Both the position numbers and the translations under genes were made by a program. Below are positions 2,730 through 59,761 of a stretch of 64,000 nucleotides of DNA, piece after piece; the first letter of the stretch is position 1; each line of letters opens with the position of its first letter. The stretch spans positions 149 through 64,148 of the forward strand of contig WQVZ01000001.1 of NCBI GenBank assembly GCA_009785595.1. Reading direction: 5' to 3'. This DNA comes from Defluviitaleaceae bacterium. Lineage in GTDB: Bacteria; Bacillota; Clostridia; Lachnospirales; WRAX01. The notes under the pieces were generated by a model that saw only the letters and a list, made by a program, of their open reading frames with translations, made no database searches and was not told where the DNA came from.

Positions 2730-3761
2730 ATGAACAAATCTTTGTTTAAGAAATATATAGCAATTGTGACCTGCCTTATCGGCTCCTTTGCCATAATAGG
2801 CCTGTCGGCGGTTATGGCACACAATTTCACATTGGCTGGACAGACAGGACCGCCAGCTACACAAATCCCAATAAACGGCAATGGTGGCCAAGCCAACCAA
2901 GCAACAGGGCAGGACAATCCGCCGGATGAGCCTGAAGCGCAAGCACTGGATGACCTTAATATATTGGTGTTGGGCCTAGACGACGATAATTTGCCTGATG
3001 TTATTATGATTGTCATGTACGATGGCGAAAACCACGAAATTGACGTAGTTTCTGTGCCTCGTGATACTCAAGTTGTCATGACGCAAACCGAGCGTGACAT
3101 GATGGCCGAAATTGGTAGACGGTTTCCCAGTCATGGTGTAGTGAAAATTAACGAATTGCATGCCCATGCCGGGCGGACCAATGGATACCGCTTGGTCAGT
3201 CACCACTTGGAAAATATGCTGGACATAGAGATTGACTACTATGTAATTATTGAATTAGACGCATTTAAGTACATCGTGGATGCTGTGGGCGGTATATATG
3301 TAGACGTGCCGCCAGGGTTCCGCTATACTGTTACTGGAGGAGCAATTAGAATCGACTTGCCCCCCGGCCGCCAGCGTTTGGATGGCAATATGGCAGAGCA
3401 ATTTGTGCGCAGAAGAAATACGCTTCATGGAGATCTTGACCGTATACGCAATCAGCAGATATTTATGCGTGAATTTTTCACCCAAGTGCTGGGTAGTGAG
3501 GATTTAATGAGTCGTCTACCTGCCTTGGCATCTTCATTTATTACCCATGTGCGTACAGATTTTGGCATATTGAGTGCCCTACGCTATGTAGGTATGGCCG
3601 ATGCCTTAAACCTCGACAGTATCGAATTTCATACATTGCCAGGACATGCCGGCACAGCACTAAACCCTGTAGGTCGTGAGTACAGTTGGTTTTTTGTAGA
3701 TGTAGAGGGATCCAGAGAGCTCATAAGAGAAATTAAAGCCGACAACGCTGCAAATCAATAA
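2730..3761 (+). CDS. LytR-CpsA-Psr (LCP) family cell-envelope protein
   Basis: 343 aa. N-terminal TM segment followed by LNILVLGLDDD...VIMIVMYD...VVSVPRDT and QFVRRR, which is characteristic of the LCP family. Confidence 0.88.
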   Translation: MNKSLFKKYIAIVTCLIGSFAIIGLSAVMAHNFTLAGQTGPPATQIPINGNGGQANQATGQDNPPDEPEAQALDDLNILVLGLDDDNLPDVIMIVMYDGENHEIDVVSVPRDTQVVMTQTERDMMAEIGRRFPSHGVVKINELHAHAGRTNGYRLVSHHLENMLDIEIDYYVIIELDAFKYIVDAVGGIYVDVPPGFRYTVTGGAIRIDLPPGRQRLDGNMAEQFVRRRNTLHGDLDRIRNQQIFMREFFTQVLGSEDLMSRLPALASSFITHVRTDFGILSALRYVGMADALNLDSIEFHTLPGHAGTALNPVGREYSWFFVDVEGSRELIREIKADNAANQ

Positions 3762-3772
3762 ATTTTTATCTA

Positions 3773-3937
3773 CCCTCCCACCAACCCGGCCCCATGACAG
3801 CAAAGCTGTCATGGGGCCGGGTTGGTGGGAGGGCCAGGGGGCCACTTGGGGGCCACCGCGGGCGAAGCCCGCGGTGGCCCCCAAGTGGCCCCCTGGCCCC
3901 AGATTTTTGATGGCCTTCGGCCATCAAAAATCTGGGG
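3773..3937. repeat. triple perfect-palindrome module 1
   Basis: H1 3773-3801/3805-3833 (29 bp, loop AAA). H2 3834-3863/3867-3896 (30 bp, loop GAA, centre GCGAAGC). H3 3897-3915/3919-3937 (19 bp, loop TTC). The hairpins abut with 0 nt between them and have no mismatches (checked by hand). The module lies between convergent genes. Confidence 0.95.
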
Positions 3938-4424
3938 CTTTTAAAAACTTGGTGTGCTTGAGTGCATATCCGGCGATAAGACCTACAAGCACACCAGTAA
4001 GTACTCCGGCTATAATCAGCACAGGAGCATAATAAAACAGGCCCGCGTTTTGCACAATAAGAGCAGCCACTACAATCTGTCCTATATTGTGAAAAACCCC
4101 ACCCCAAACACTTACACCAACCACACCAAAGATTTTCACCCTTTTGGCCAAAACCATGGCAGCATAACTTAAAATACCACCGGACAGACTGTAAGCTACG
4201 CTAAAAGGGGAACCAAAAAGCAACCCTATTGCTACTATGCGCAAGACAGATATGCCAAGAGCCGCTTTGGATCCCATGGCATAAAGGGCCATAACAACTA
4301 TAACATTAGCCAAGCCCAGCTTCACCCCGGGAACAGGTATAGGCATAGGGAAAAGTCTTTCTATATAGGCGGCCACCATAGCCAGCCCGCCCAATATGCC
4401 AAAATATGCTATCTTTTTTGCCAT
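3924..4424 (-). CDS. Gx transporter family membrane protein
   Basis: ORF-track 3924..4466 trimmed to ATG 4424, which has GGGAGAG upstream; the longer start lies inside palindrome module 2. The protein is multi-TM and Gly-rich and resembles the Gx transporter family usually paired with NusG_II proteins. The last codons and the stop lie in the right arm of module 1 hairpin 3. Confidence 0.72.
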   Translation of the reverse strand: MAKKIAYFGILGGLAMVAAYIERLFPMPIPVPGVKLGLANVIVVMALYAMGSKAALGISVLRIVAIGLLFGSPFSVAYSLSGGILSYAAMVLAKRVKIFGVVGVSVWGGVFHNIGQIVVAALIVQNAGLFYYAPVLIIAGVLTGVLVGLIAGYALKHTKFLKAPDF

Positions 4425-4460
4425 CGCGCTCTCCCATTGTTCCACTCTTTTTGTTGATTG

Positions 4461-4631
4461 CCTCAAGGCCGGTTCTACTGTTTCGCGAAGCGAAACAGTA
4501 GAACCGGCCTTGAGGCCTTAGCCCAACCAGAGTGCGCTTTGCGCACTCTGGTTGGGCTAAGGCCTCCCCCTCTCCTCCAGTCATCCCACACCCCCTTTGG
4601 GGGTGTGGGATGACTGGAGGAGAGGGGGAGG
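4461..4631. repeat. triple perfect-palindrome module 2
   Basis: H1 4461-4486/4490-4515 (26 bp, loop GAA, centre GCGAAGC). H2 4516-4537/4541-4562 (22 bp, loop TTT). H3 4563-4595/4599-4631 (33 bp, loop TTT). The hairpins abut and have no mismatches. The module sits between two co-oriented minus-strand genes. Confidence 0.95.
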
Positions 4632-4650
4632 CAAAATTTATATTGCTATA

Positions 4651-5007
4651 TCACGTGCCATTGCGTAATTCCACAATAACGCGGTTTGGCAGGCATGTTA
4701 TGGTTTGCCAAATATTTGAAATCGGCCCCATCCTTATACAATATTGGTCAGGGCAGTCTGCATAAACCATACGCACCCTGCCGCCGCTTATCATTATCTC
4801 ATTATGACCGCGCTCTGTTTTAATACGAAAAATCTCCCCGTCATTTCGCCTGATGTCCACAGCCAAAACCTCCACACCATCTACATGCACCGCCACAACA
4901 GACCCCTCACGTCCGCCTACAATAAGAAAAATAAAAATCAGAGATATGGCCAATAATATGAGTAGCACAATAAGTACCACATCTGCCCGCTTCAAAATCT
5001 CCGCCAC
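4651..5007 (-). CDS. NusG domain II-containing membrane-anchored protein
   Basis: 118 aa with a GTG start. N-terminal TM helix followed by ...CPDQYCIRMGPISNIWQTITCLPNRV, the Cys pattern of NusG_II (former DUF1312) proteins. Confidence 0.75.
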   Translation of the reverse strand: MAEILKRADVVLIVLLILLAISLIFIFLIVGGREGSVVAVHVDGVEVLAVDIRRNDGEIFRIKTERGHNEIMISGGRVRMVYADCPDQYCIRMGPISNIWQTITCLPNRVIVELRNGT

Positions 5008-5071
5008 TGTCGTATTTCCCCCAAGTTTTCATAAACTGATTATACCATACCACAACCCAAGGAGCTTTTCC

Positions 5072-5911
5072 ATGAAAAAATTTGGCCGCTTTCTGTATGC
5101 CCTATACGGTAAAATCAACGAAAATGAGATTTTGCCCCTGGCCACCCAACTTACCTATCGCCTGGTTTTCTCACTGTTCCCATTCATCATCTTTCTAATA
5201 TCCTTGGTAGGTTTTTTTGAAATAGACCCGGAATTTCTATTGGATGAAGTTTCCGGCCTTTTCCCTGCGCAAATAGCCCAGGTGATAAACGATGTTATAT
5301 ATGACGTGGTAGACACCCGCAACCCCAGCATAATGTCCACCAGCTTACTTTTTTATATTTTCACCGTGGCCAGCGGCTTTCGTGCTGTCATGCGAGGCAT
5401 ACACAAGGCCTATGATCAAGAAGACACCCGTAATGCCGTTGTGCGCTGGCTTTACTGTACCTTGCTGGTTATAGCTCTGGCTCTGGCTATTGTCTCTTCC
5501 TTGTTGGTTATCATTTTCGGCGACACCATCTACAGCCTTATTGACCGTTATTTCCACTTCAACGGCTTTTTTGTGGTAATCTTCGGCTTTACCGGGGTGT
5601 TAATAACCATAACCATAATGCTGGCTGTAATTATCCTCATTTATCGCCTATCTTACTCCAAAAAGCAGACCATAATATCCCTGCTGCCGGGTGCTATGTT
5701 TACCCTGGCCGTCTGGGCCATATCCTCTTCGGCCTTTAATTTCTGGGTCAATAACTTCTCGCGCCATTCCCTTATATACGGCTCTATCGCCAGCATTTTC
5801 ATTACCATGCTGTGGCTTAATATCATATCTGCCACAATTTTAATAGGGGCGCAGACCAATGCGTTACTAAGCGTTCATTCGGGCGACCGAGGACGGTCAC
5901 CCCTACAATGA
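5072..5911 (+). CDS. YihY/BrkB family membrane protein
   Basis: ORF-track 4853..5911 trimmed to ATG 5072, which is preceded by AAGGAG. Multi-TM with LTYRLVFSLFPFIIFLISL. The last ~10 codons are encoded by a REP-like hairpin (5881-5908). Confidence 0.8.
   Translation: MKKFGRFLYALYGKINENEILPLATQLTYRLVFSLFPFIIFLISLVGFFEIDPEFLLDEVSGLFPAQIAQVINDVIYDVVDTRNPSIMSTSLLFYIFTVASGFRAVMRGIHKAYDQEDTRNAVVRWLYCTLLVIALALAIVSSLLVIIFGDTIYSLIDRYFHFNGFFVVIFGFTGVLITITIMLAVIILIYRLSYSKKQTIISLLPGAMFTLAVWAISSSAFNFWVNNFSRHSLIYGSIASIFITMLWLNIISATILIGAQTNALLSVHSGDRGRSPLQ
5881..5908 (-). repeat. REP-like hairpin, family copy A1
   Basis: The minus strand reads TTGTAGGGGTGACCGTCCTCGGTCGCCC: an 8-bp stem with one mismatch and a 6-nt loop. 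It overlaps the 3' ends of the convergent yihY-like and comF-like genes. Confidence 0.8.
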
Positions 5912-29060: not shown

Positions 29061-29675
29061 ATGGATAACTTCGATTATAAAAACAGAGTGGATATGGCCC
29101 TGGTGCCTATGGTTGTGGAGCAATCAAACCGGGGCGAGCGTGCCTACGACATATATTCCCGCCTGCTAAAAGACGGCATAATCTTTTTAGGCGATCCTGT
29201 TATGGACGTCACCGCCAATTTGGTGGTGGCCCAGATGTTGTTTTTGGCGGCAGAATATCCCGACCGAGACATTAGCTTCTACATCAACAGCCCCGGCGGC
29301 TCTGTGTCTGCCGGCATGGCTATTTATGATACCATGCAGTTTATAAAACCCGATGTTTCCACCATTTGCGTGGGCATGGCGGCGTCTATGGGGGCGTTTT
29401 TGCTGGCGGGCGGCACAAAGGGCAAGCGTTTTGCTCTGCCCAATGCAGAAATTATGATACACCAGCCATCCGGCGGTGCCCGCGGCCAGGCTTCCGATAT
29501 ACAGATCCATGCCGAACACATCTTAAAAACCAAAGAAAAACTGAACAAAATGCTGGCAGAGGCAACAGGCCAGCCCTATAAAAAAATTGTGCAAGACTCT
29601 GACCGAGACAACTTTATGTCTGCCGAGGAGGCCAAGGCCTACGGTCTGATAGACGAAATTATTACCAAAATATAA
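29061..29675 (+). CDS. clpP: ATP-dependent Clp protease proteolytic subunit
   Basis: 204 aa. [27 protein letters not shown], catalytic Ser in [11 protein letters not shown] and His in IMIHQP. GGGAGG lies upstream. Confidence 0.96.
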
Positions 29676-30127
29676 TGCTGATAAAAAGGCATTTTTTTGC
29701 AGCAGTTGTTGTGTTGTTTATTTTTGCGGCCTGCACAACAGCATCGGATATTTATATTGAGCCTGACCCAATACCAACCTCGGCACCACCAAACACTGTA
29801 TTTAACGGACCCATAGAGGCATTTGCCGCCGGAAGAGAAGCCAGCTTTATATTGCGTCCCGACGGCACTTTATGGGCCTGGGGCTGGAATAGCTACGGAC
29901 AAGTCGGAAATGGACAGGTTGATTATTTACAAACGGATTCAGGCCACATGACCAACCCAAATCCCACAATGATAATGGAAAATGTTGCCCATGTCTCGGC
30001 AGGAGATGGGCACGTGCTGGCTATGACAACAGACGGCCGCCTTTGGGCCTGGGGAAACAACAATAGCGGCCAGCTTGGAGACGGCACGCAAGATAATAGG
30101 TTTTTTCCAGTTCTGATTGTCGAATAA
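29675..30127 (+). CDS. small RCC1-repeat lipoprotein
   Basis: 150 aa. Signal peptide with a lipobox-like FAAC. Two RCC1-type repeats ([15 protein letters not shown] and [15 protein letters not shown]). The ATG overlaps the clpP TAA (TAATG). Confidence 0.7.
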
Positions 30128-30155
30128 AACGATTGCAATATTAAGGAGGATTTAC

Positions 30156-31433
30156 GTGTCAAAAGACAAGGATGACGAAAGACAGGTGTTTTGCAGTTTT
30201 TGCGGCAAGCCCAGGGAAAACAACCGGCGCTTTGTGGCCGGCCCCGGCGGCGTGTTTATTTGCAACGAATGTATTGACCTGTGCAATGATATATTTTATG
30301 ACAGCCCCACGGAATATGAGCCCGAAGGGGACGAGGACTACAAAATATACAAACCCAAGGAGATTTGCGCCTATTTGGACCAATACGTAATAGGCCAATA
30401 CGCGGCTAAAAAAGCTCTGTCCGTGGCGGTTTATAACCACTATAAGCGCATTGTAAAACGAGAGCAGGAAGAAAACGCCGGGGTAGAGCTGCAAAAAAGC
30501 AATGTGCTGCTGCTGGGCCCAACGGGCGTGGGCAAAACCTTTTTGGCTCAAACCCTGGCCCGCTTGCTTGATGTACCCTTTGCCGTGGCCGACGCCACCA
30601 GTCTCACAGAGGCCGGATACGTGGGCGAAGATGTAGAAAATATCCTGCTGCGATTGATACAAGCCGCCGATGGTGATGTACACCGGGCAGAACGGGGCAT
30701 CATATATATCGACGAAATTGACAAAATAGCCAGAAAGTCCGAAAACCCCTCTATTACCCGAGATGTTAGCGGTGAAGGGGTACAGCAGGCCCTGCTTAAA
30801 ATTTTGGAAGGCACGGTGGCATCCGTACCACCTCAGGGTGGCCGCAAGCATCCCCACCAGGAATTTATACAGATGGACACCACCAACATCCTCTTCATCT
30901 GTGGCGGTGCTTTTGACGGCATTGACAAAATCATCGAACAACGTCTTAACAAAAAAATCATAGGCTTTGGGGCAGAATTTCGCGACAAAAACGACAAGGC
31001 CACAGATGCACTGTTAAGCCAAGTAATCACCAAAGATTTGCAGAAATTCGGCCTTATCCCGGAGATTATCGGTCGTCTGCCCATAATTGTGTCTTTGGAT
31101 TCTCTGGACGAGCAAGCCCTAATATCTATCCTTACAGAGCCTAAAAACGCCCTTATCAAACAGTATCAGCATCTGTTCTCTTTAGATGATGTGGTGCTGG
31201 AATTTGACGAAGAAGCCATTGCTACCTCTGCCAAATTAGCCATCGAAAGAAAAATGGGCGTGCGGGGTCTGCGCTCTGTTATAGAGGCCTTTATGATAGA
31301 TATTATGTACGAAATACCCTCTGTAGAAAATATCGAAAAGGTGGTTGTAACCCAAGACACTGTGGAAAGAACCGCCCCGGCAAAAATCATATACAAGGCA
31401 AAAGAGGACGAAACACCCAAAGAAGCATCTTAA
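30156..31433 (+). CDS. clpX: ATP-dependent Clp protease ATP-binding subunit ClpX
   Basis: Start set to GTG 30156, 6 nt after AAGGAGG. Zinc finger CSFCGK...CNEC and Walker A GPTGVGKT. Confidence 0.96.
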
Positions 31434-31501: not shown

Positions 31502-33148
31502 ATGAAAGAAAATACACCAAGCAGTTTTATACACCATGCTATTTCAGAAGACCTTGGAGACAACACCAACCGGCTTATAACCAGATTTCCTCCCGAGCCC
31601 GCCGGATATCTCCATATAGGCCACGCAAAGGCTATTTGCATAAATTTTGGCCTGGCCGAACATTATGGCGGCCTTTGCAACCTGCGCTTTGACGAGACCG
31701 ACCCAACCAAAAAAGACATGGAGTACTACGTAGAATCCATCAAAGACACCATACGTTGGCTGGGCTTTCAATGGAACGAGCTTTGCTATGCTTCCAATTA
31801 CTTTGAGCAATTTTATGAATATGCAGTGCTGCTGATTAAAAAAGGTGTGGCCTATGTTTGTGACCTTTCTGCCGAGGAAACGCGTCAATATCGCGGCACC
31901 TTAAACGAGCCCGGCAAAAACAGCCCGTATCGCAACAGAAACATAGACGAAAATCTGGATTTATTCGAAAAAATGAAAGCCGGAGAGTTCCCCGATGGTG
32001 CGCGAACCCTTAGGGCAAAAATAGATATGGCCAGCCCAAACATAAACATGCGTGACCCTATAATATACCGCATAATTCACGCTCCTCATTACAATACCGG
32101 TGACAAGTGGTGCGTATATCCAACATACGACTATGCCCATCCCCTGGAAGACGCCATCGAGGGTGTGACCCATTCCCTATGCGGTGTGGAATTTGAAGAC
32201 CACCGCCCGCTGTATGACTGGTTTGTAAACCAAATTGGTTTTGACCCCGCGCCGCGTCAAATAGAATTTGCCGAGCTGCATCTTTCCAACACTGTTTTAG
32301 GCAAGCGTCACATCCGTAAGCTCATTGAAGACGGAATTGCAGACGGATGGGACGACCCGCGGCTTATGACTCTGCCAGGTTTGCGCCGCCGGGGCTATAC
32401 CCCAACGGCTATACGTGATTTTATCGAGCGCATTGGCCTTAGCAAGGCACAAAGCACTGTTGATATTGGTTTTCTGGAGCACTGCCTGCGGGAGGACATA
32501 AGTCTGTCCTCCAAGGTTGTAATGGCTGTGCTGGATCCCATCAAGCTAATTATCACAAATTATCCCGAAAGCCAAACAGAAATGGTAGAAATGCCTAATA
32601 ATCCCAAAAATCTCGACCTAGGCACGCGGCAAATGCCCTTCTCCCGTGAAGTTTATATCGAGCGCAGTGACTTTGAAGAAATCGCGCCGCCAAAATATCA
32701 CAGGCTCTATCCCGGCAACGAAGTGCGACTTGCGGGAGCATATTTTGTGACATGTACGGATTTTGTAAAAGATGAGTCCGGGCGGATTGTGGAGGTTCAT
32801 GCTACATATGACCCGGCTACAAAAAGCGGTTCCGGCTTTAGCGAGCGTAAAGTAAAAGGCACCATACATTGGGTAAGTTGTGCCCAGGCCGTCAAAATCC
32901 GCTGTAATTTATATGATTATCTGTTTTTTGACGACGATACCCAGGAATCTGGCTTTCGCTTCAATGAAAATTCTCTTGTGGTAGCAGAAAATGCCGTGGC
33001 CGAGCCATCTATAATAAATGCCGGGCAAGAAGACCGCTTCCAGTTTATGCGCAATGCATATTTTTGCCTGGACAGCAAAACGTCATCTCCGAACAACCCG
33101 GTATTTAACCGCATCGTAGAAATAAAAAGCTCTTATAAGCCAACATAA
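31502..33148 (+). CDS. glnS: glutamine--tRNA ligase
   Basis: 548 aa. Class I HIGH motif (YLHIGHAKA), with the GlnRS catalytic and anticodon-binding regions collinear. GGGAGGGG lies upstream. Confidence 0.95.
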   Translation: MKENTPSSFIHHAISEDLGDNTNRLITRFPPEPAGYLHIGHAKAICINFGLAEHYGGLCNLRFDETDPTKKDMEYYVESIKDTIRWLGFQWNELCYASNYFEQFYEYAVLLIKKGVAYVCDLSAEETRQYRGTLNEPGKNSPYRNRNIDENLDLFEKMKAGEFPDGARTLRAKIDMASPNINMRDPIIYRIIHAPHYNTGDKWCVYPTYDYAHPLEDAIEGVTHSLCGVEFEDHRPLYDWFVNQIGFDPAPRQIEFAELHLSNTVLGKRHIRKLIEDGIADGWDDPRLMTLPGLRRRGYTPTAIRDFIERIGLSKAQSTVDIGFLEHCLREDISLSSKVVMAVLDPIKLIITNYPESQTEMVEMPNNPKNLDLGTRQMPFSREVYIERSDFEEIAPPKYHRLYPGNEVRLAGAYFVTCTDFVKDESGRIVEVHATYDPATKSGSGFSERKVKGTIHWVSCAQAVKIRCNLYDYLFFDDDTQESGFRFNENSLVVAENAVAEPSIINAGQEDRFQFMRNAYFCLDSKTSSPNNPVFNRIVEIKSSYKPT

Positions 33149-33154
33149 ACATCC

Positions 33155-33178
33155 ACCGGCCGAATAGGCCGGTTTTTT
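33155..33178 (+). terminator. glnS intrinsic terminator
   Basis: ACCGGCC gaata GGCCGGT followed by TTTTT. Confidence 0.8.
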
Positions 33179-33230
33179 ATTTGGATAAAATCTTGCCCAT
33201 TAGAACAGACTATTTTATAACTTTATAAGT

Positions 33231-33414
33231 GGCCCACACTCCACTCCCACCCACCCATTTGGCGGCAAAGCCGCCAAATGGGTGGGTGGGAGTGGAGTGT
33301 GGGCCTGGGGCCGGAGCCCTGGGAGCCGCTGGGGCGCGTAGCGCCCCAGCGGCTCCCAGGGCTCCGGCCCCAGGCCCCGTGGAGAGCAAGCCTACGGCTT
33401 GCTCTCCACGGGGC
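33231..33414. repeat. triple perfect-palindrome module 4
   Basis: H1 33231-33266/33270-33305 (36 bp, loop AAA). H2 33306-33337/33341-33372 (32 bp, loop GTA, centre GCGTAGC). H3 33374-33392/33396-33414 (19 bp, loop TAC). No mismatches. There is one unpaired g between H2 and H3. Confidence 0.95.
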
Positions 33415-33440
33415 ACATCATATAGAAATGTGGTGCCTTT

Positions 33441-34157
33441 ATGATTACGAAAACATTGTTGTGTGCTTGTCTGCTTCTCATTCCCGCCACCTTAGAATAT
33501 ATAAAAGAAGCCCCGATTATCGCCGAAATTACGGAAAGTTGTAAAATATACAGCGACAAAGACCGTAATTTTCCCATTGGCGACCTTGCTGCAGGTTGCC
33601 ACGCAGAGATTTTAGAAGATTTTTCTGCAGAGGTGTATAAAATTAATGCTAGTGGTGCATTGGGTTGGGTTGAAGCCGAATTTTTGAACATTCCTCCTGA
33701 TAGCCCAACGGACAAAAGTATCTTAACAATGGAGCAATTGGAGGATTTTGTCGCAAAAAGCAGCTACACAAGCAAAACAGACTTTCTTATTTTAACAGAC
33801 ATAGGCCGCCAAAAAACCCATATCTTCAAGGCATCCGACCCAGGCTGGTCTTTATTAAAAACCTTCGATTGCTCTACCGGCACAAACACTTCGCCCACCA
33901 CCCGGGGCATCTTTACCATATCCGAACGAGGCCTGTGGTTTTATTCCCAACGCCTATCCTCCGGCGCAAAATATTGGATGCGTTTTAATGGCCAGTATCT
34001 CTTCCATTCCATCCCCATGGACTCAAACAAAAACATCATCCCCGGCGAAGATATTGTGGGCGAAAAACGCTCCAGCGGCTGCGTACGTCTAATGCCTAAT
34101 GACGCAAAGTGGTTGTACGAAAATATCCCGGACGGATCCACCGTTGTCATTATATAG
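33441..34157 (+). CDS. L,D-transpeptidase (YkuD domain) with N-terminal SH3-like region
   Basis: 238 aa. Signal peptide and catalytic motif FHSIP...SSGCVRL. Confidence 0.85.
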   Translation: MITKTLLCACLLLIPATLEYIKEAPIIAEITESCKIYSDKDRNFPIGDLAAGCHAEILEDFSAEVYKINASGALGWVEAEFLNIPPDSPTDKSILTMEQLEDFVAKSSYTSKTDFLILTDIGRQKTHIFKASDPGWSLLKTFDCSTGTNTSPTTRGIFTISERGLWFYSQRLSSGAKYWMRFNGQYLFHSIPMDSNKNIIPGEDIVGEKRSSGCVRLMPNDAKWLYENIPDGSTVVII

Positions 34158-36871: not shown

Positions 36872-36892
36872 GGTCTTAACAAAAAATATTAG

Positions 36893-37034
36893 TTTGGCTA
36901 GGGGTGCTTTTTGTGTGGTTTGCAAAGGGCTGAGATAATACCCTTTAACTTGATCCGGATAATGCCGGCGAAAGGAAGTTACAGCTAGGTAGTTTTTCTC
37001 TGCCGCCCTCCTTGCCATTCAATTAAAAAGGAGG
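36893..37034 (+). promoter_or_regulatory. TPP (THI-box) riboswitch with SD-sequestering expression platform
   Basis: GGGGTGC ... GGGCTGAGATAATACCC ... ACTTGATCCGGATAATGCCGGCGAAAGGAAG matches the conserved TPP aptamer core. Downstream, CCTCCTT (37007-37013) can pair with the SD AAGGAGG (37028-37034). Confidence 0.88.
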
Positions 37035-37041
37035 ATTTTTT

Positions 37042-37710
37042 ATGGCTTTTTTTGAGCAATTTGCCAGCCTGATCAACACAGACCTAGGCAGATTTATCAC
37101 CTTGTTGATTGCGGCACTGTTGTTTATTGTTGTTGTGGGCCGTTTTTTCAAAAAGGCTAAGTTTACAACCGCCACATTGGCCTATGTGGGCTTGGCACTA
37201 GCCATCGCCTTTGTGTTATCTTATTTTAGGCTGTATCAGTTCCCCTGGGGCGGCTCTGTTACATTTATGAGCATGTTTTTTGTCGTGTTGATAGGTCTGT
37301 GGTTTGGCCCAACTGTCGGCCTGGTGTCGGCTTTTGCTTATGGTTTGCTACAATTAGCCCAAAACCCCATGATATTCTATCCCTTACAGCTTATTTTAGA
37401 TTACCCCTTGGCCTTTGGTGCCTTGGGTCTGGCGGGCTTTTTCCGCAAAATGAAAGGCGGTATGTACATAGGTTTTGTTGTGGCCGTTTTCGGTCGTTGG
37501 GTTTTCCACACCTTATCGGGATATTTCTTTTTCTCCCAATGGGCATGGGAAGGTTGGAACGCACTGCCGTACGCCATGGCCTATAACGCCATTTATCTTG
37601 GCGCAGAAATGATACTCACATTGGTTATCATATCCATTCCCGTCATGCGTCATGCTTTGGATCATGTAAAAAATCGTGTGGTAACGGCCGGGGCCGCCAC
37701 AGCAAGGTAG
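37042..37710 (+). CDS. thiT: thiamine transporter ThiT (ECF S component / YuaJ family)
   Basis: 222 aa with six predicted TM segments. It lies directly behind the TPP riboswitch, and its sequence pattern is consistent with the ThiT family. Confidence 0.8.
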   Translation: MAFFEQFASLINTDLGRFITLLIAALLFIVVVGRFFKKAKFTTATLAYVGLALAIAFVLSYFRLYQFPWGGSVTFMSMFFVVLIGLWFGPTVGLVSAFAYGLLQLAQNPMIFYPLQLILDYPLAFGALGLAGFFRKMKGGMYIGFVVAVFGRWVFHTLSGYFFFSQWAWEGWNALPYAMAYNAIYLGAEMILTLVIISIPVMRHALDHVKNRVVTAGAATAR

Positions 37711-59730: not shown

Positions 59731-59761
59731 ATACAGGGGCGGCCAACGGCCACCCCTGTAT
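59731..59761. terminator. long triloop hairpin between convergent genes
   Basis: ATACAGGGGCGGCC aac GGCCACCCCTGTAT: 14 bp with one mismatch and a 3-nt loop. Confidence 0.45.

Follow-up and report, generated by a model that had tools for sequence, protein, structure and literature searches.

The glnS-ykuD locus

The DNA analysed here is a 64-kb stretch of a Defluviitaleaceae genome (contig WQVZ01000001.1), referred to as the window, and the element in question is an array of three long, perfect hairpins, module 4, which lies between glnS, the gene for glutamine--tRNA ligase, and a gene for a YkuD-family L,D-transpeptidase. It is one of four such arrays in the window. The locus comprises the following features:

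31502-33148, plus strand: glnS, glutamine--tRNA ligase (open reading frame; Pfam tRNA-synt_1c domains)
33155-33179, plus strand: intrinsic terminator of glnS (terminator scan)
33183-33229, plus strand: conserved promoter-like block (alignment of six species)
33231-33305: module 4, hairpin 1, arms 33231-33266 and 33270-33305; 36 bp, loop AAA, 5' arm C-rich, 3' arm with a G-run
33301-33377: module 4, hairpin 2, arms 33301-33337 and 33341-33377; 37 bp, loop GTA, 86% GC
33374-33414: module 4, hairpin 3, arms 33374-33392 and 33396-33414; 19 bp, loop TAC
33425-33435, plus strand: Shine-Dalgarno (SD) block GAAATGTGGTG of the YkuD gene (conserved in relatives)
33441-34157, plus strand: YkuD-family L,D-transpeptidase gene (Pfam PF03734; glnS-ykuD synteny in relatives)

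The region 33231-33414 consists of three abutting inverted repeats, each with arms that are 100% complementary and separated by 3 nt. Hairpin 2 shares 5 nt with hairpin 1 and 4 nt with hairpin 3. The initial annotation had described stems of 36, 32 and 19 bp with loops AAA, GTA and TAC, and all three were found exactly where it had placed them; the 32 bp for hairpin 2 result from subtracting the 5 pairs shared with hairpin 1 from the full stem of 37 bp. The same 36, 32 and 19 bp make up the minimum-free-energy structure of the RNA, whose fold of -222.8 kcal/mol compares with -101 ± 5.3 kcal/mol for dinucleotide shuffles (z = -23), and each hairpin folded as DNA gives a z-score between -10 and -16. 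By calculation, chance alone would produce about 2e-7 perfect 19-bp stems with a 3-nt loop per 64 kb.

The G-run claimed for the 3' arm of hairpin 1 is also present (GGGTGGGTGGGAGTGGAGTGTGGG). A G-quadruplex switch was nevertheless judged unlikely, since the G-runs are locked in a perfect 36-bp duplex stem. An open reading frame that spans the whole module (33229-33444) was dropped as a coding sequence: it has no SD sequence and its product is of low complexity, and such frames are to be expected because GC-rich sequence is poor in stop codons.

The GlnS protein of the window is identical to NCBI entry MCL2396463.1, a protein from a Defluviitaleaceae metagenome-assembled genome (MAG). As had been noted before, glnS possesses a classical terminator of its own, which the terminator scan detected as a stem (33155-33173; 7 bp, 6/7 GC, 5-nt loop) followed by TTTTTT. 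Module 4 begins 52 nt 3' of this terminator and ends at position 33414, which leaves the previously reported 26 nt up to the ATG of the YkuD gene. This start codon (33441) is backed by a conserved N-terminus and by the SD sequence in relatives. The 11-mer GAAATGTGGTG is identical in the window and in the relatives' loci L085, L086 and L098, where it is positioned 5-6 nt 5' of the ATG, and we read it as the SD sequence because it is complementary to the 3' end of the 16S rRNA. The distance from the end of module 4 to this block is 10 nt, so that the SD sequence is left free. The 3' flank of the module is ACATCATATA and contains no U-tract. RNAfold predicted an SD-sequestering hairpin (33416-33435) together with an AU closing helix; both were dropped, as neither is kept in L085 or L086.

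Upstream of the module, the initial annotation had pointed to a promoter composed of TTGCCC (33193-33198), a 17-nt spacer and TATAAC (33216-33221). These hexamers exist, but they are weak and were not called by the sigma-70 scan, because the final position of the -10 element is not a T. The conserved promoter-like block (33183-33229) further contains GGATA (33183-33187), N18 and CAGACTA (33206-33212); the corresponding sequence 5' of ykuD is GGATA-N17-CATTATA in L085 (11652-11680) and L100 (3725-3753). This GGATA-N17/18-CAnnnTA motif resembles promoters of the forespore sigma F/G type. In B. subtilis, ykuD is a sporulation gene. Judging from its conservation, the block might have a promoter function, and the promoter serving the YkuD gene could be the TTGCCC/TATAAC hexamers or the GGATA motif, or the gene could be reached by read-through from glnS.

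Module 4 in the light of related genomes

The glnS-ykuD pair is retained in relatives of the window species. The protein collection contains no closer relative, the next GlnS being 78% identical. Comparison of the region downstream of glnS, which the initial annotation had proposed, proved informative. An alignment of the spacers from six species reveals two conserved blocks, an upstream block GGATAAAA...CATT... (GGATAwAw...CATT-G-rCA) and the downstream block GAAATGTGGTG. No long hairpin is present in L086 and L098, where the upstream block runs directly into the downstream one (...CAACATACCAAAAAAGAAATGTGGTG...ATG). In three species, these otherwise contiguous blocks are split by perfect or near-perfect hairpins, namely by three in the window, by one in L085 and by at least one in L100.

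The L085 hairpin has 17 bp and the loop GAA, and it ends 27 nt 5' of the ATG (26 nt in the window); hairpin 3 of the window is its positional ortholog. In L100, whose GlnS is 75% identical to that of the window, the first hairpin after the promoter-like block (3761-3823) has 25-26 bp; a G7 run in one arm faces C8 in the other, a difference that reflects either a bulge of 1 nt or an error in the homopolymer. Homology of this hairpin to hairpin 1 of the window was not significant (p = 0.19), leaving positional orthology only. The L100 contig stops 6 nt past the hairpin with CGGGGG, as if a second palindrome had broken the assembly. Orthologous glnS terminators are found in L086 and L095, as in the window.

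The gap of 26 nt that separates module 4 from the ATG gave no call in a promoter scan and contains the SD block alone. Since the blocks that are contiguous in relatives flank the hairpins, and since the 26-nt gap holds only the SD sequence, transcripts that reach the YkuD gene must include module 4. It is therefore likely, as far as comparative sequence data can tell, that module 4 sits within the transcript, in the 5' leader of the YkuD gene. The earlier suggestion that 184 nt of hairpins belong to the ykuD 5' untranslated region (UTR) is thus backed by the comparison of relatives, whereas the promoter proposed along with it remains doubtful.

Four arrays with common properties

The other three arrays, together with the two genes that surround module 2, are located as follows:

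3773-3938: module 1; hairpins of 29, 33 and 20 bp, loops AAA, GAA and TTC; between the convergent LytR_cpsA_psr and Gx-transporter genes
3924-4424, minus strand: Hpre_diP_synt_I / Gx-transporter gene (Pfam PF07456; start ATG 4424 fixed by an alignment of homologues)
4460-4632: module 2; hairpins of 27, 26 and 34 bp, loops GAA, TTT and TTT; within the NusG_II-to-Gx-transporter gene pair
4651-5007, minus strand: NusG_II-domain gene (open reading frame; tblastn with NusG_II proteins of three relatives, E 1e-30 to 1e-34)
26305-26525: module 3; hairpins of 32, 50 and 28 bp, loops TTT in all three; fills the gap between the convergent RidA and M23-peptidase genes

Perfect stems of 17 bp or more number exactly 12 in the window; they all belong to the four triple modules and have loops of 3 nt. 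Degenerate long hairpins are absent from the window, the next-best structures being ordinary hairpins of 11-13 pairs. Per 100 kb, the window has 18.8 perfect stems of at least 17 bp, the clade relatives have 4.2, and 78 more distant glnS loci have 1.1, the last being classic terminators flanked by A/T-tracts.

The GC content is 72% in the stems, 24-40% in the 40-nt flanks and 48% in the window as a whole, and only 5/36 loop positions (14%) are G or C. The loops are restricted to AAA/TTT, which make up half of them, GAA/TTC and GTA/TAC; they are always closed by a C:G pair, usually in the form GC-NNN-GC. At all internal junctions (8/8), neighbouring hairpins overlap by 3-5 nt, and owing to these overlaps a short word and its reverse complement alternate along the module (GCCTC/GAGGC in module 2, TGCC/GGCA in module 3, GGCCC/GGGCC in module 4). 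Read in the sense orientation, modules 1, 2 and 4 share the same order: the first hairpin is long, with the loop AAA and a 5' arm rich in C, the second is also long and has an RWA loop, and the third is shorter and has a TWC loop. At the site orthologous to module 3, one perfect 30-bp hairpin is present in L085 and one of 12 bp in L086, with essentially unrelated sequences.

The arms do not form a sequence family: in pairwise local alignments against shuffles, nothing went beyond p = 0.01 among 105 pairs. When the arms were searched with blastn-short in the window and in loci totalling about 1.1 Mb, only the arms themselves and their partners were returned, and no resemblance was seen to the rest of 73 kb of the genome and its relatives. 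A foreign origin was rejected as well, as plasmid and phage sequences gave no meaningful matches.

Long perfect hairpins of 17-25 bp with larger loops and lower GC content occur in L090 (9929-9973), L092 (7935-7992) and L098 (14834-14885), and one of them, like module 2, occupies the NusG_II-to-Gx-transporter spacer. Perfect stems appear to characterise the clade as a whole. There are also small hairpins with 3-nt loops between convergent genes, one in the window (59731-59761; 13/14 bp, loop AAC) and one in L096 (6239-6277; perfect 18 bp, loop AGT), approximately 2.7 kb past the end of the window. These two may represent the ordinary, uninflated state of the elements. Three of the four modules adjoin genes of the cell envelope (LytR_cpsA_psr, NusG_II/Gx transporter, M23 peptidase, YkuD), which may be a coincidence at n = 4.

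Module 2 and the probable lack of a terminator role

Module 2 is 173 nt long, starts 18 nt after the stop codon of the NusG_II gene and ends 35 nt before the ATG at 4424; these 35 nt hold a good SD sequence (GGGAGAG). The Gx-transporter gene, which is intact and conserved, has module 2 in the leader and, at the 3' end, module 1, whose hairpin 3 contains the last 4 codons and the stop codon of the gene. The same order, NusG_II followed by the Gx-transporter gene, is found in L092, L090 and L094 with spacers of 21, 70 and 115 nt. A minus-strand promoter scan at module 2 gave no call. A position of module 2 in a divergent promoter region was considered and rejected, since the intact minus-strand NusG_II gene (4651-5007) makes it intercistronic. 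An open reading frame for a BrkB protein on the plus strand (4853-5911) masks this gene; it is over-extended at its 5' end, with the BrkB domain starting at residue 90.

No T-run follows any of the four modules and none was called by the terminator scan, although the same genome uses canonical hairpin-plus-T terminators with loops of 5-6 nt. Measured against an intrinsic terminator, the arrays have the GC-rich stem-loop, but they have no 3' U-run and do not mark the end of a transcription unit. As no array is followed by a U-tract, the arrays appear to be transcribed through, and they cannot be efficient terminators because module 2 sits inside a conserved gene pair in front of an intact gene. 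We therefore consider it likely that the arrays are not terminators. That the modules can occur apart from a terminator role had been deduced from module 4, and module 2 makes this point more strongly.

Perfect stems and their probable maintenance at the DNA level

All 12 hairpins of the window and both hairpins found in L085 are 100% Watson-Crick paired, with not a single G:T pair or mismatch in 371 and 47 pairs, respectively. Selection for RNA pairing tolerates G:U pairs and occasional mismatches, and selected RNA hairpins typically have tetraloops. The stems of the arrays are equally perfect on both strands, and their loops all have the sterically minimal 3 nt. Hairpin 3 of the window (GCCCCGTGGAGAGCAAGCC) and the L085 hairpin (GCCCGGTGCGGCAAGCC) are similar to each other (p about 0.01 against shuffles) and differ by 2 substitutions and two 1-nt indels, every one of which is mirrored in the other arm.

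The complete lack of mismatches and G:T pairs, the AT-rich 3-nt loops and the mirrored differences led us to propose a DNA-level process, copying from arm to arm, that preserves the perfection of the stems; on balance we regard this as probable on the sequence evidence. The arm of module 1 that overwrites the last codons of a gene fits this as well. Template switching can make or perfect a whole hairpin in a single event (PMC7202029; bioRxiv 10.1101/2023.04.19.537475), and in palindromes of the primate X chromosome conversion keeps the arms identical, with a reported GC bias (10.1101/2021.04.21.440828). In the arrays, one arm might be copied from the other via intrastrand template switching, quasipalindrome correction or arm-to-arm conversion. 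This copying would probably be GC-biased and could so produce stems of 72-86% GC next to loops of 14% GC; the 3-nt tip, as the sole part that cannot pair, would drift towards AT. Palindromes that grow into their neighbours and then become symmetrical would leave the shared junction words of 3-5 nt.

Support from independent assemblies

The same sequence is present in an 87-kb MEGAHIT contig (ENA ERZ27257300, k141_366381). In the Logan assembly of run SRR10512955, two contigs (L082 and L084) enter module 4 from its true flanks; one halts 30 nt into hairpin 1 and the other just past the loop of hairpin 2, having traversed the 19-bp hairpin 3. The k-mer size behind Logan contigs is about 31, and breaks inside hairpins 1 and 2 are what a short-k de Bruijn graph should give at real palindromes whose stems exceed the k-mer size. 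In general, short-k assemblies fragment at long palindromes, and genomes rich in such elements are systematically broken at intergenic sites. The genomes nearest to the window are Defluviitaleaceae MAGs from termite guts (cf. PMC7024585).

Comparison with known hairpin elements

In the literature on perfect, tandem or GC-rich hairpin arrays in bacteria we found no description of perfect arrays with unique sequences, and this kind of array is apparently undescribed. The arrays belong to the extragenic palindromic hairpin clusters, with a real chance that they are something more distinct. In function they would be most like repetitive extragenic palindromic (REP) sequences and the bacterial interspersed mosaic elements (BIMEs) built from them, yet they fail the tests that define this group. 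Common to both are a high GC content, an extragenic location, head-to-tail clustering of the hairpins in intergenic or intercistronic positions and transcription within operons, and the roles reported for REP/BIME are mRNA stabilisation, termination, insulation and protein binding (PMC3333891). However, a REP sequence is an imperfect palindrome of 20-40 nt with a conserved sequence, occurs in hundreds of copies and is tied to a RAYT Y1 transposase, whereas every stem of the arrays is different, perfect and up to 50 bp long, and neighbours overlap without linkers. There is no significant similarity among the 12 arms or within 73 kb. A GTAG-like 5' tetranucleotide is missing; the perfect stems of 19-50 bp start with GGCC, GCCC, GCCTC or TGCC. 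The Pfam scan identified no RAYT/Y1 transposase among the genes of the 64-kb window. The arrays are extragenic and clustered; as the palindromes are perfect, their orientation can be defined by the loop alone.

Hairpins that stabilise the 5' end of a message or serve processing between cistrons, such as those in the ompA, aprE and ermC leaders or the RNase III sites of phage T7, are single, short, imperfect and selected as RNA. Module 4 has in common with them a stable leader hairpin 5' of an SD sequence that is left unoccluded, and intercistronic placement is shared by module 2; arrays of perfect 19-50-bp DNA palindromes set the modules apart from this group. Modules 1 and 3 resemble intrinsic terminators, tandem and "I-shaped" forms included, as GC-rich hairpins just past stop codons, but they differ by the missing U-tract, and two of the four modules precede genes that require read-through.

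The nearest structural analogue is found in the GC-rich hairpin elements of organelles, i.e. double-hairpin elements and the repetitive hairpin-forming elements of sponge mitochondria (PMC2800124). These are also GC-rich hairpin clusters that invade the AT-rich intergenic DNA of a compact genome, but they form sequence families, while the arrays described here are bacterial and of unique sequence. Template-switch or quasipalindrome mutation and palindrome conversion are processes rather than elements and have been described in E. coli reporters and in primate genomes; template switching copies a pre-existing adjacent sequence and so leaves the origin of the arms unexplained. MITE or Correia-type elements do not fit, since shared termini within a module are at most 3-5 nt long and the flanks are not direct repeats. 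Nor do integron attC sites, as the stems are perfect, R''/R' core sites (RYYYAAC...GTTRRRY) are not visible and the flanking genes are housekeeping genes. A known RNA family was rejected too: in Rfam, module 4 gives only sub-threshold, strand-symmetric hits to generic microRNA hairpin models, and the one match in the window that reaches the gathering score is a thiamine pyrophosphate (TPP) riboswitch located elsewhere.

Possible function and alternative explanations

Taken together, the arrays might be explained in layers, by the leader position, the maintenance at the DNA level and an effect on RNA, and we rate this combination as a little short of even. Its last component, a role in RNA stability, is drawn from analogy with REP/BIME (PMC3333891) and with 5' stabiliser stem-loops and is tentative. 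Three stacked helices (approximately -220 kcal/mol) in an mRNA would form a barrier to exonucleases and possibly a processing site for RNase III; with perfect helices of 19-37 bp, module 4 has the double-stranded RNA of at least about 20 bp that such a site requires. The 5' end of the YkuD message would then be fixed or stabilised by the block of module 4, as would the 3' end of any glnS read-through transcript, and the same protection might apply to the intercistronic block (module 2) and to the convergent 3' ends (modules 1 and 3). Each block would in this way determine the ends of the messages on either side and how stable they are relative to each other. Because module 4 stops 10 nt short of the SD block, translation initiation should stay possible. 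It is known that 5' stem-loops stabilise mRNA in Firmicutes.

A joint reading goes further and views the arrays as a new kind of "structure-only" palindrome without a sequence family, co-opted as modular three-hairpin protectors of RNA ends; it, too, is a possibility that we hold to be clearly less than probable. According to this reading, the palindromes would be born or enlarged by fold-back or template-switch synthesis nucleated at the tip of a C-NNN-G mini-hairpin, and GC-biased copying from arm to arm would both keep them perfect and make them GC-rich. They would have colonised 5' leaders, intercistronic spacers and convergent 3' ends, and as part of the same tentative reading their spread would be confined to one clade of termite-gut Defluviitaleaceae.

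Several points weigh against the layered explanation. The data cover one genome of the window species and about 143 kb of clade relatives. No sigma-70-type promoter passed the scan of the window, L085 and L100 spacers. The hairpin-bearing L085 (11645-11711) and L100 (3721-3760) show no canonical glnS terminator, so the hairpins there may be intercistronic or mark the 3' end of glnS, and the leader and glnS 3'-end roles are not separable at the glnS-ykuD locus of these two relatives; the clean separation from a terminator role comes from the locus in the window itself and from module 2. Perfect double-stranded RNA of 19-37 bp should also be a substrate of RNase III, which could destabilise the message. 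Copying leaves the origin of the GC-rich arms unexplained, the hairpin-less relatives having no half-arm and the arms matching nothing, and it does not account for three hairpins per module, the restricted loop set and the recurrent order of loops.

The main alternative accepts the position, the non-terminator and the DNA-maintenance layers, and regards the arrays as a functionless by-product of a lineage-specific self-perfecting process or as a selfish structural element that is transcribed and tolerated without a selected role. We consider this rather unlikely but worth serious attention. Every arm is unique, and no family, target-site duplication or, among the window genes scanned, associated enzyme gene was found; a given site carries between 0 and 3 hairpins, depending on the relative, and in L086 and L098 the leader works without any; hairpins at orthologous sites are mostly unrelated, as in the case of L100 and hairpin 1 of the window; and one arm extends into the last codons of a gene. 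A mere by-product is harder to reconcile with a leader position and a convergent site at each of which three species carry hairpins, with hairpins that end just short of SD regions (26, 27 and 35 nt before the start codon), and with the regular three-hairpin architecture with its recurrent order of loop types. It is improbable that the arrays act as DNA, i.e. as cruciforms or single-stranded hairpins that bind gyrase, an IHF-like protein or a hairpin-specific nuclease or recombinase, or as topological insulators. The perfect Watson-Crick symmetry on both strands and the AT-rich flanks would suit such an element, as would the GNA-type loops closed by C:G among the arrays, since 3-nt loops of this type (GCGAAGC, GCGTAGC) form the most stable DNA mini-hairpins (PMC13037366), and BIMEs are known to bind gyrase, Pol I and IHF (PMC3333891). 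On the other hand, a protein would find no conserved sequence to recognise beyond the loop and its closing pair, half of the loops are AAA/TTT and not GNA, and the Pfam scan brought up no candidate protein among the genes of the window.

It is unlikely, if somewhat less so than an action at the DNA level, that module 4 is a back-up or insulating terminator for read-through from glnS and that the arrays in general are strong, bidirectional terminators without a U-tract. For other phyla, "I-shaped" terminators that have no U-tract have been proposed. Modules 1 and 3 take up the gaps between convergent genes, L085 and L100 carry hairpins and no canonical glnS terminator, and REP elements can terminate transcription (PMC3333891). 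However, T-runs are missing 3' of every module in a genome that has canonical hairpin-plus-T terminators, module 2 is part of a conserved operon, and module 4 lies between the promoter-like block and the SD sequence; given the positions of modules 2 and 4, efficient termination would silence both downstream genes. Even less can be said for a YkuD promoter within or after hairpin 3, which would make the module an untranscribed spacer and to which we assign very little probability. Weak hexamers can be read there (e.g. TTGCTC at 33399-33404, 16 nt, TATAGA at 33421-33426), but they match at 7/12 positions, have no final T and gave no call in the scan, the implied transcription start site at about 33433 falls in the conserved SD block, and L085 has no equivalent. 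Finally, the arrays might be fold-back chimeras that arose in the library or were joined by the assembler, given that the hairpin-bearing contigs examined are all MEGAHIT assemblies of termite-gut metagenomes and that short-k assemblies break at hairpins. Yet none of the arms is an inverted copy of a neighbouring gene, each being unique and rich in GC; past every module the contig rejoins the syntenic flank that belongs there; contigs of a second assembler run into the arms from the true flank on either side; hairpins occupy the same site in three species, and the modules are placed flush with stop codons and SD regions. An assembly artefact is thus very unlikely, its probability being close to negligible, and we take the arrays to be real.

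Implications and further features of the window

If the arrays are indeed transcribed through and self-perfecting, bacterial UTRs would be open to large structural elements that are invisible to repeat finders and family models, because each copy is unique. They would also be a natural bacterial case of concerted evolution of palindrome arms at the DNA level, in which one could test whether GC-biased conversion lifts the local GC content from about 30% to about 85%. As extremely stable, modular hairpins, the arrays could be used to measure effects on mRNA decay, RNase III processing and translation. The comparison at the glnS-ykuD locus further shows that a strong hairpin can follow a gene without being a terminator.

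Such elements may also lead gene callers to report spurious open reading frames. The stop-free, GC-rich palindromes give rise to such frames over every module (33229-33444 on the plus strand, 4458-4613, 4532-4765 and 26287-26619); the first of them ends in an ATGA overlap with the start of the YkuD gene, and frames of this type could be mis-annotated.

Two further features of the window were noted. An open reading frame of 150 amino acids with RCC1 repeats (29675-30127, plus strand) is located exactly between clpP (29061-29675) and clpX (30117-31433), while clpP is directly followed by clpX in L085, L086 and L098. The TPP riboswitch (RF00059, 66.8 bits) is found at 36890-36993 on the plus strand, 5' of a Thia_YuaJ thiamine-transporter gene (37042-37710).

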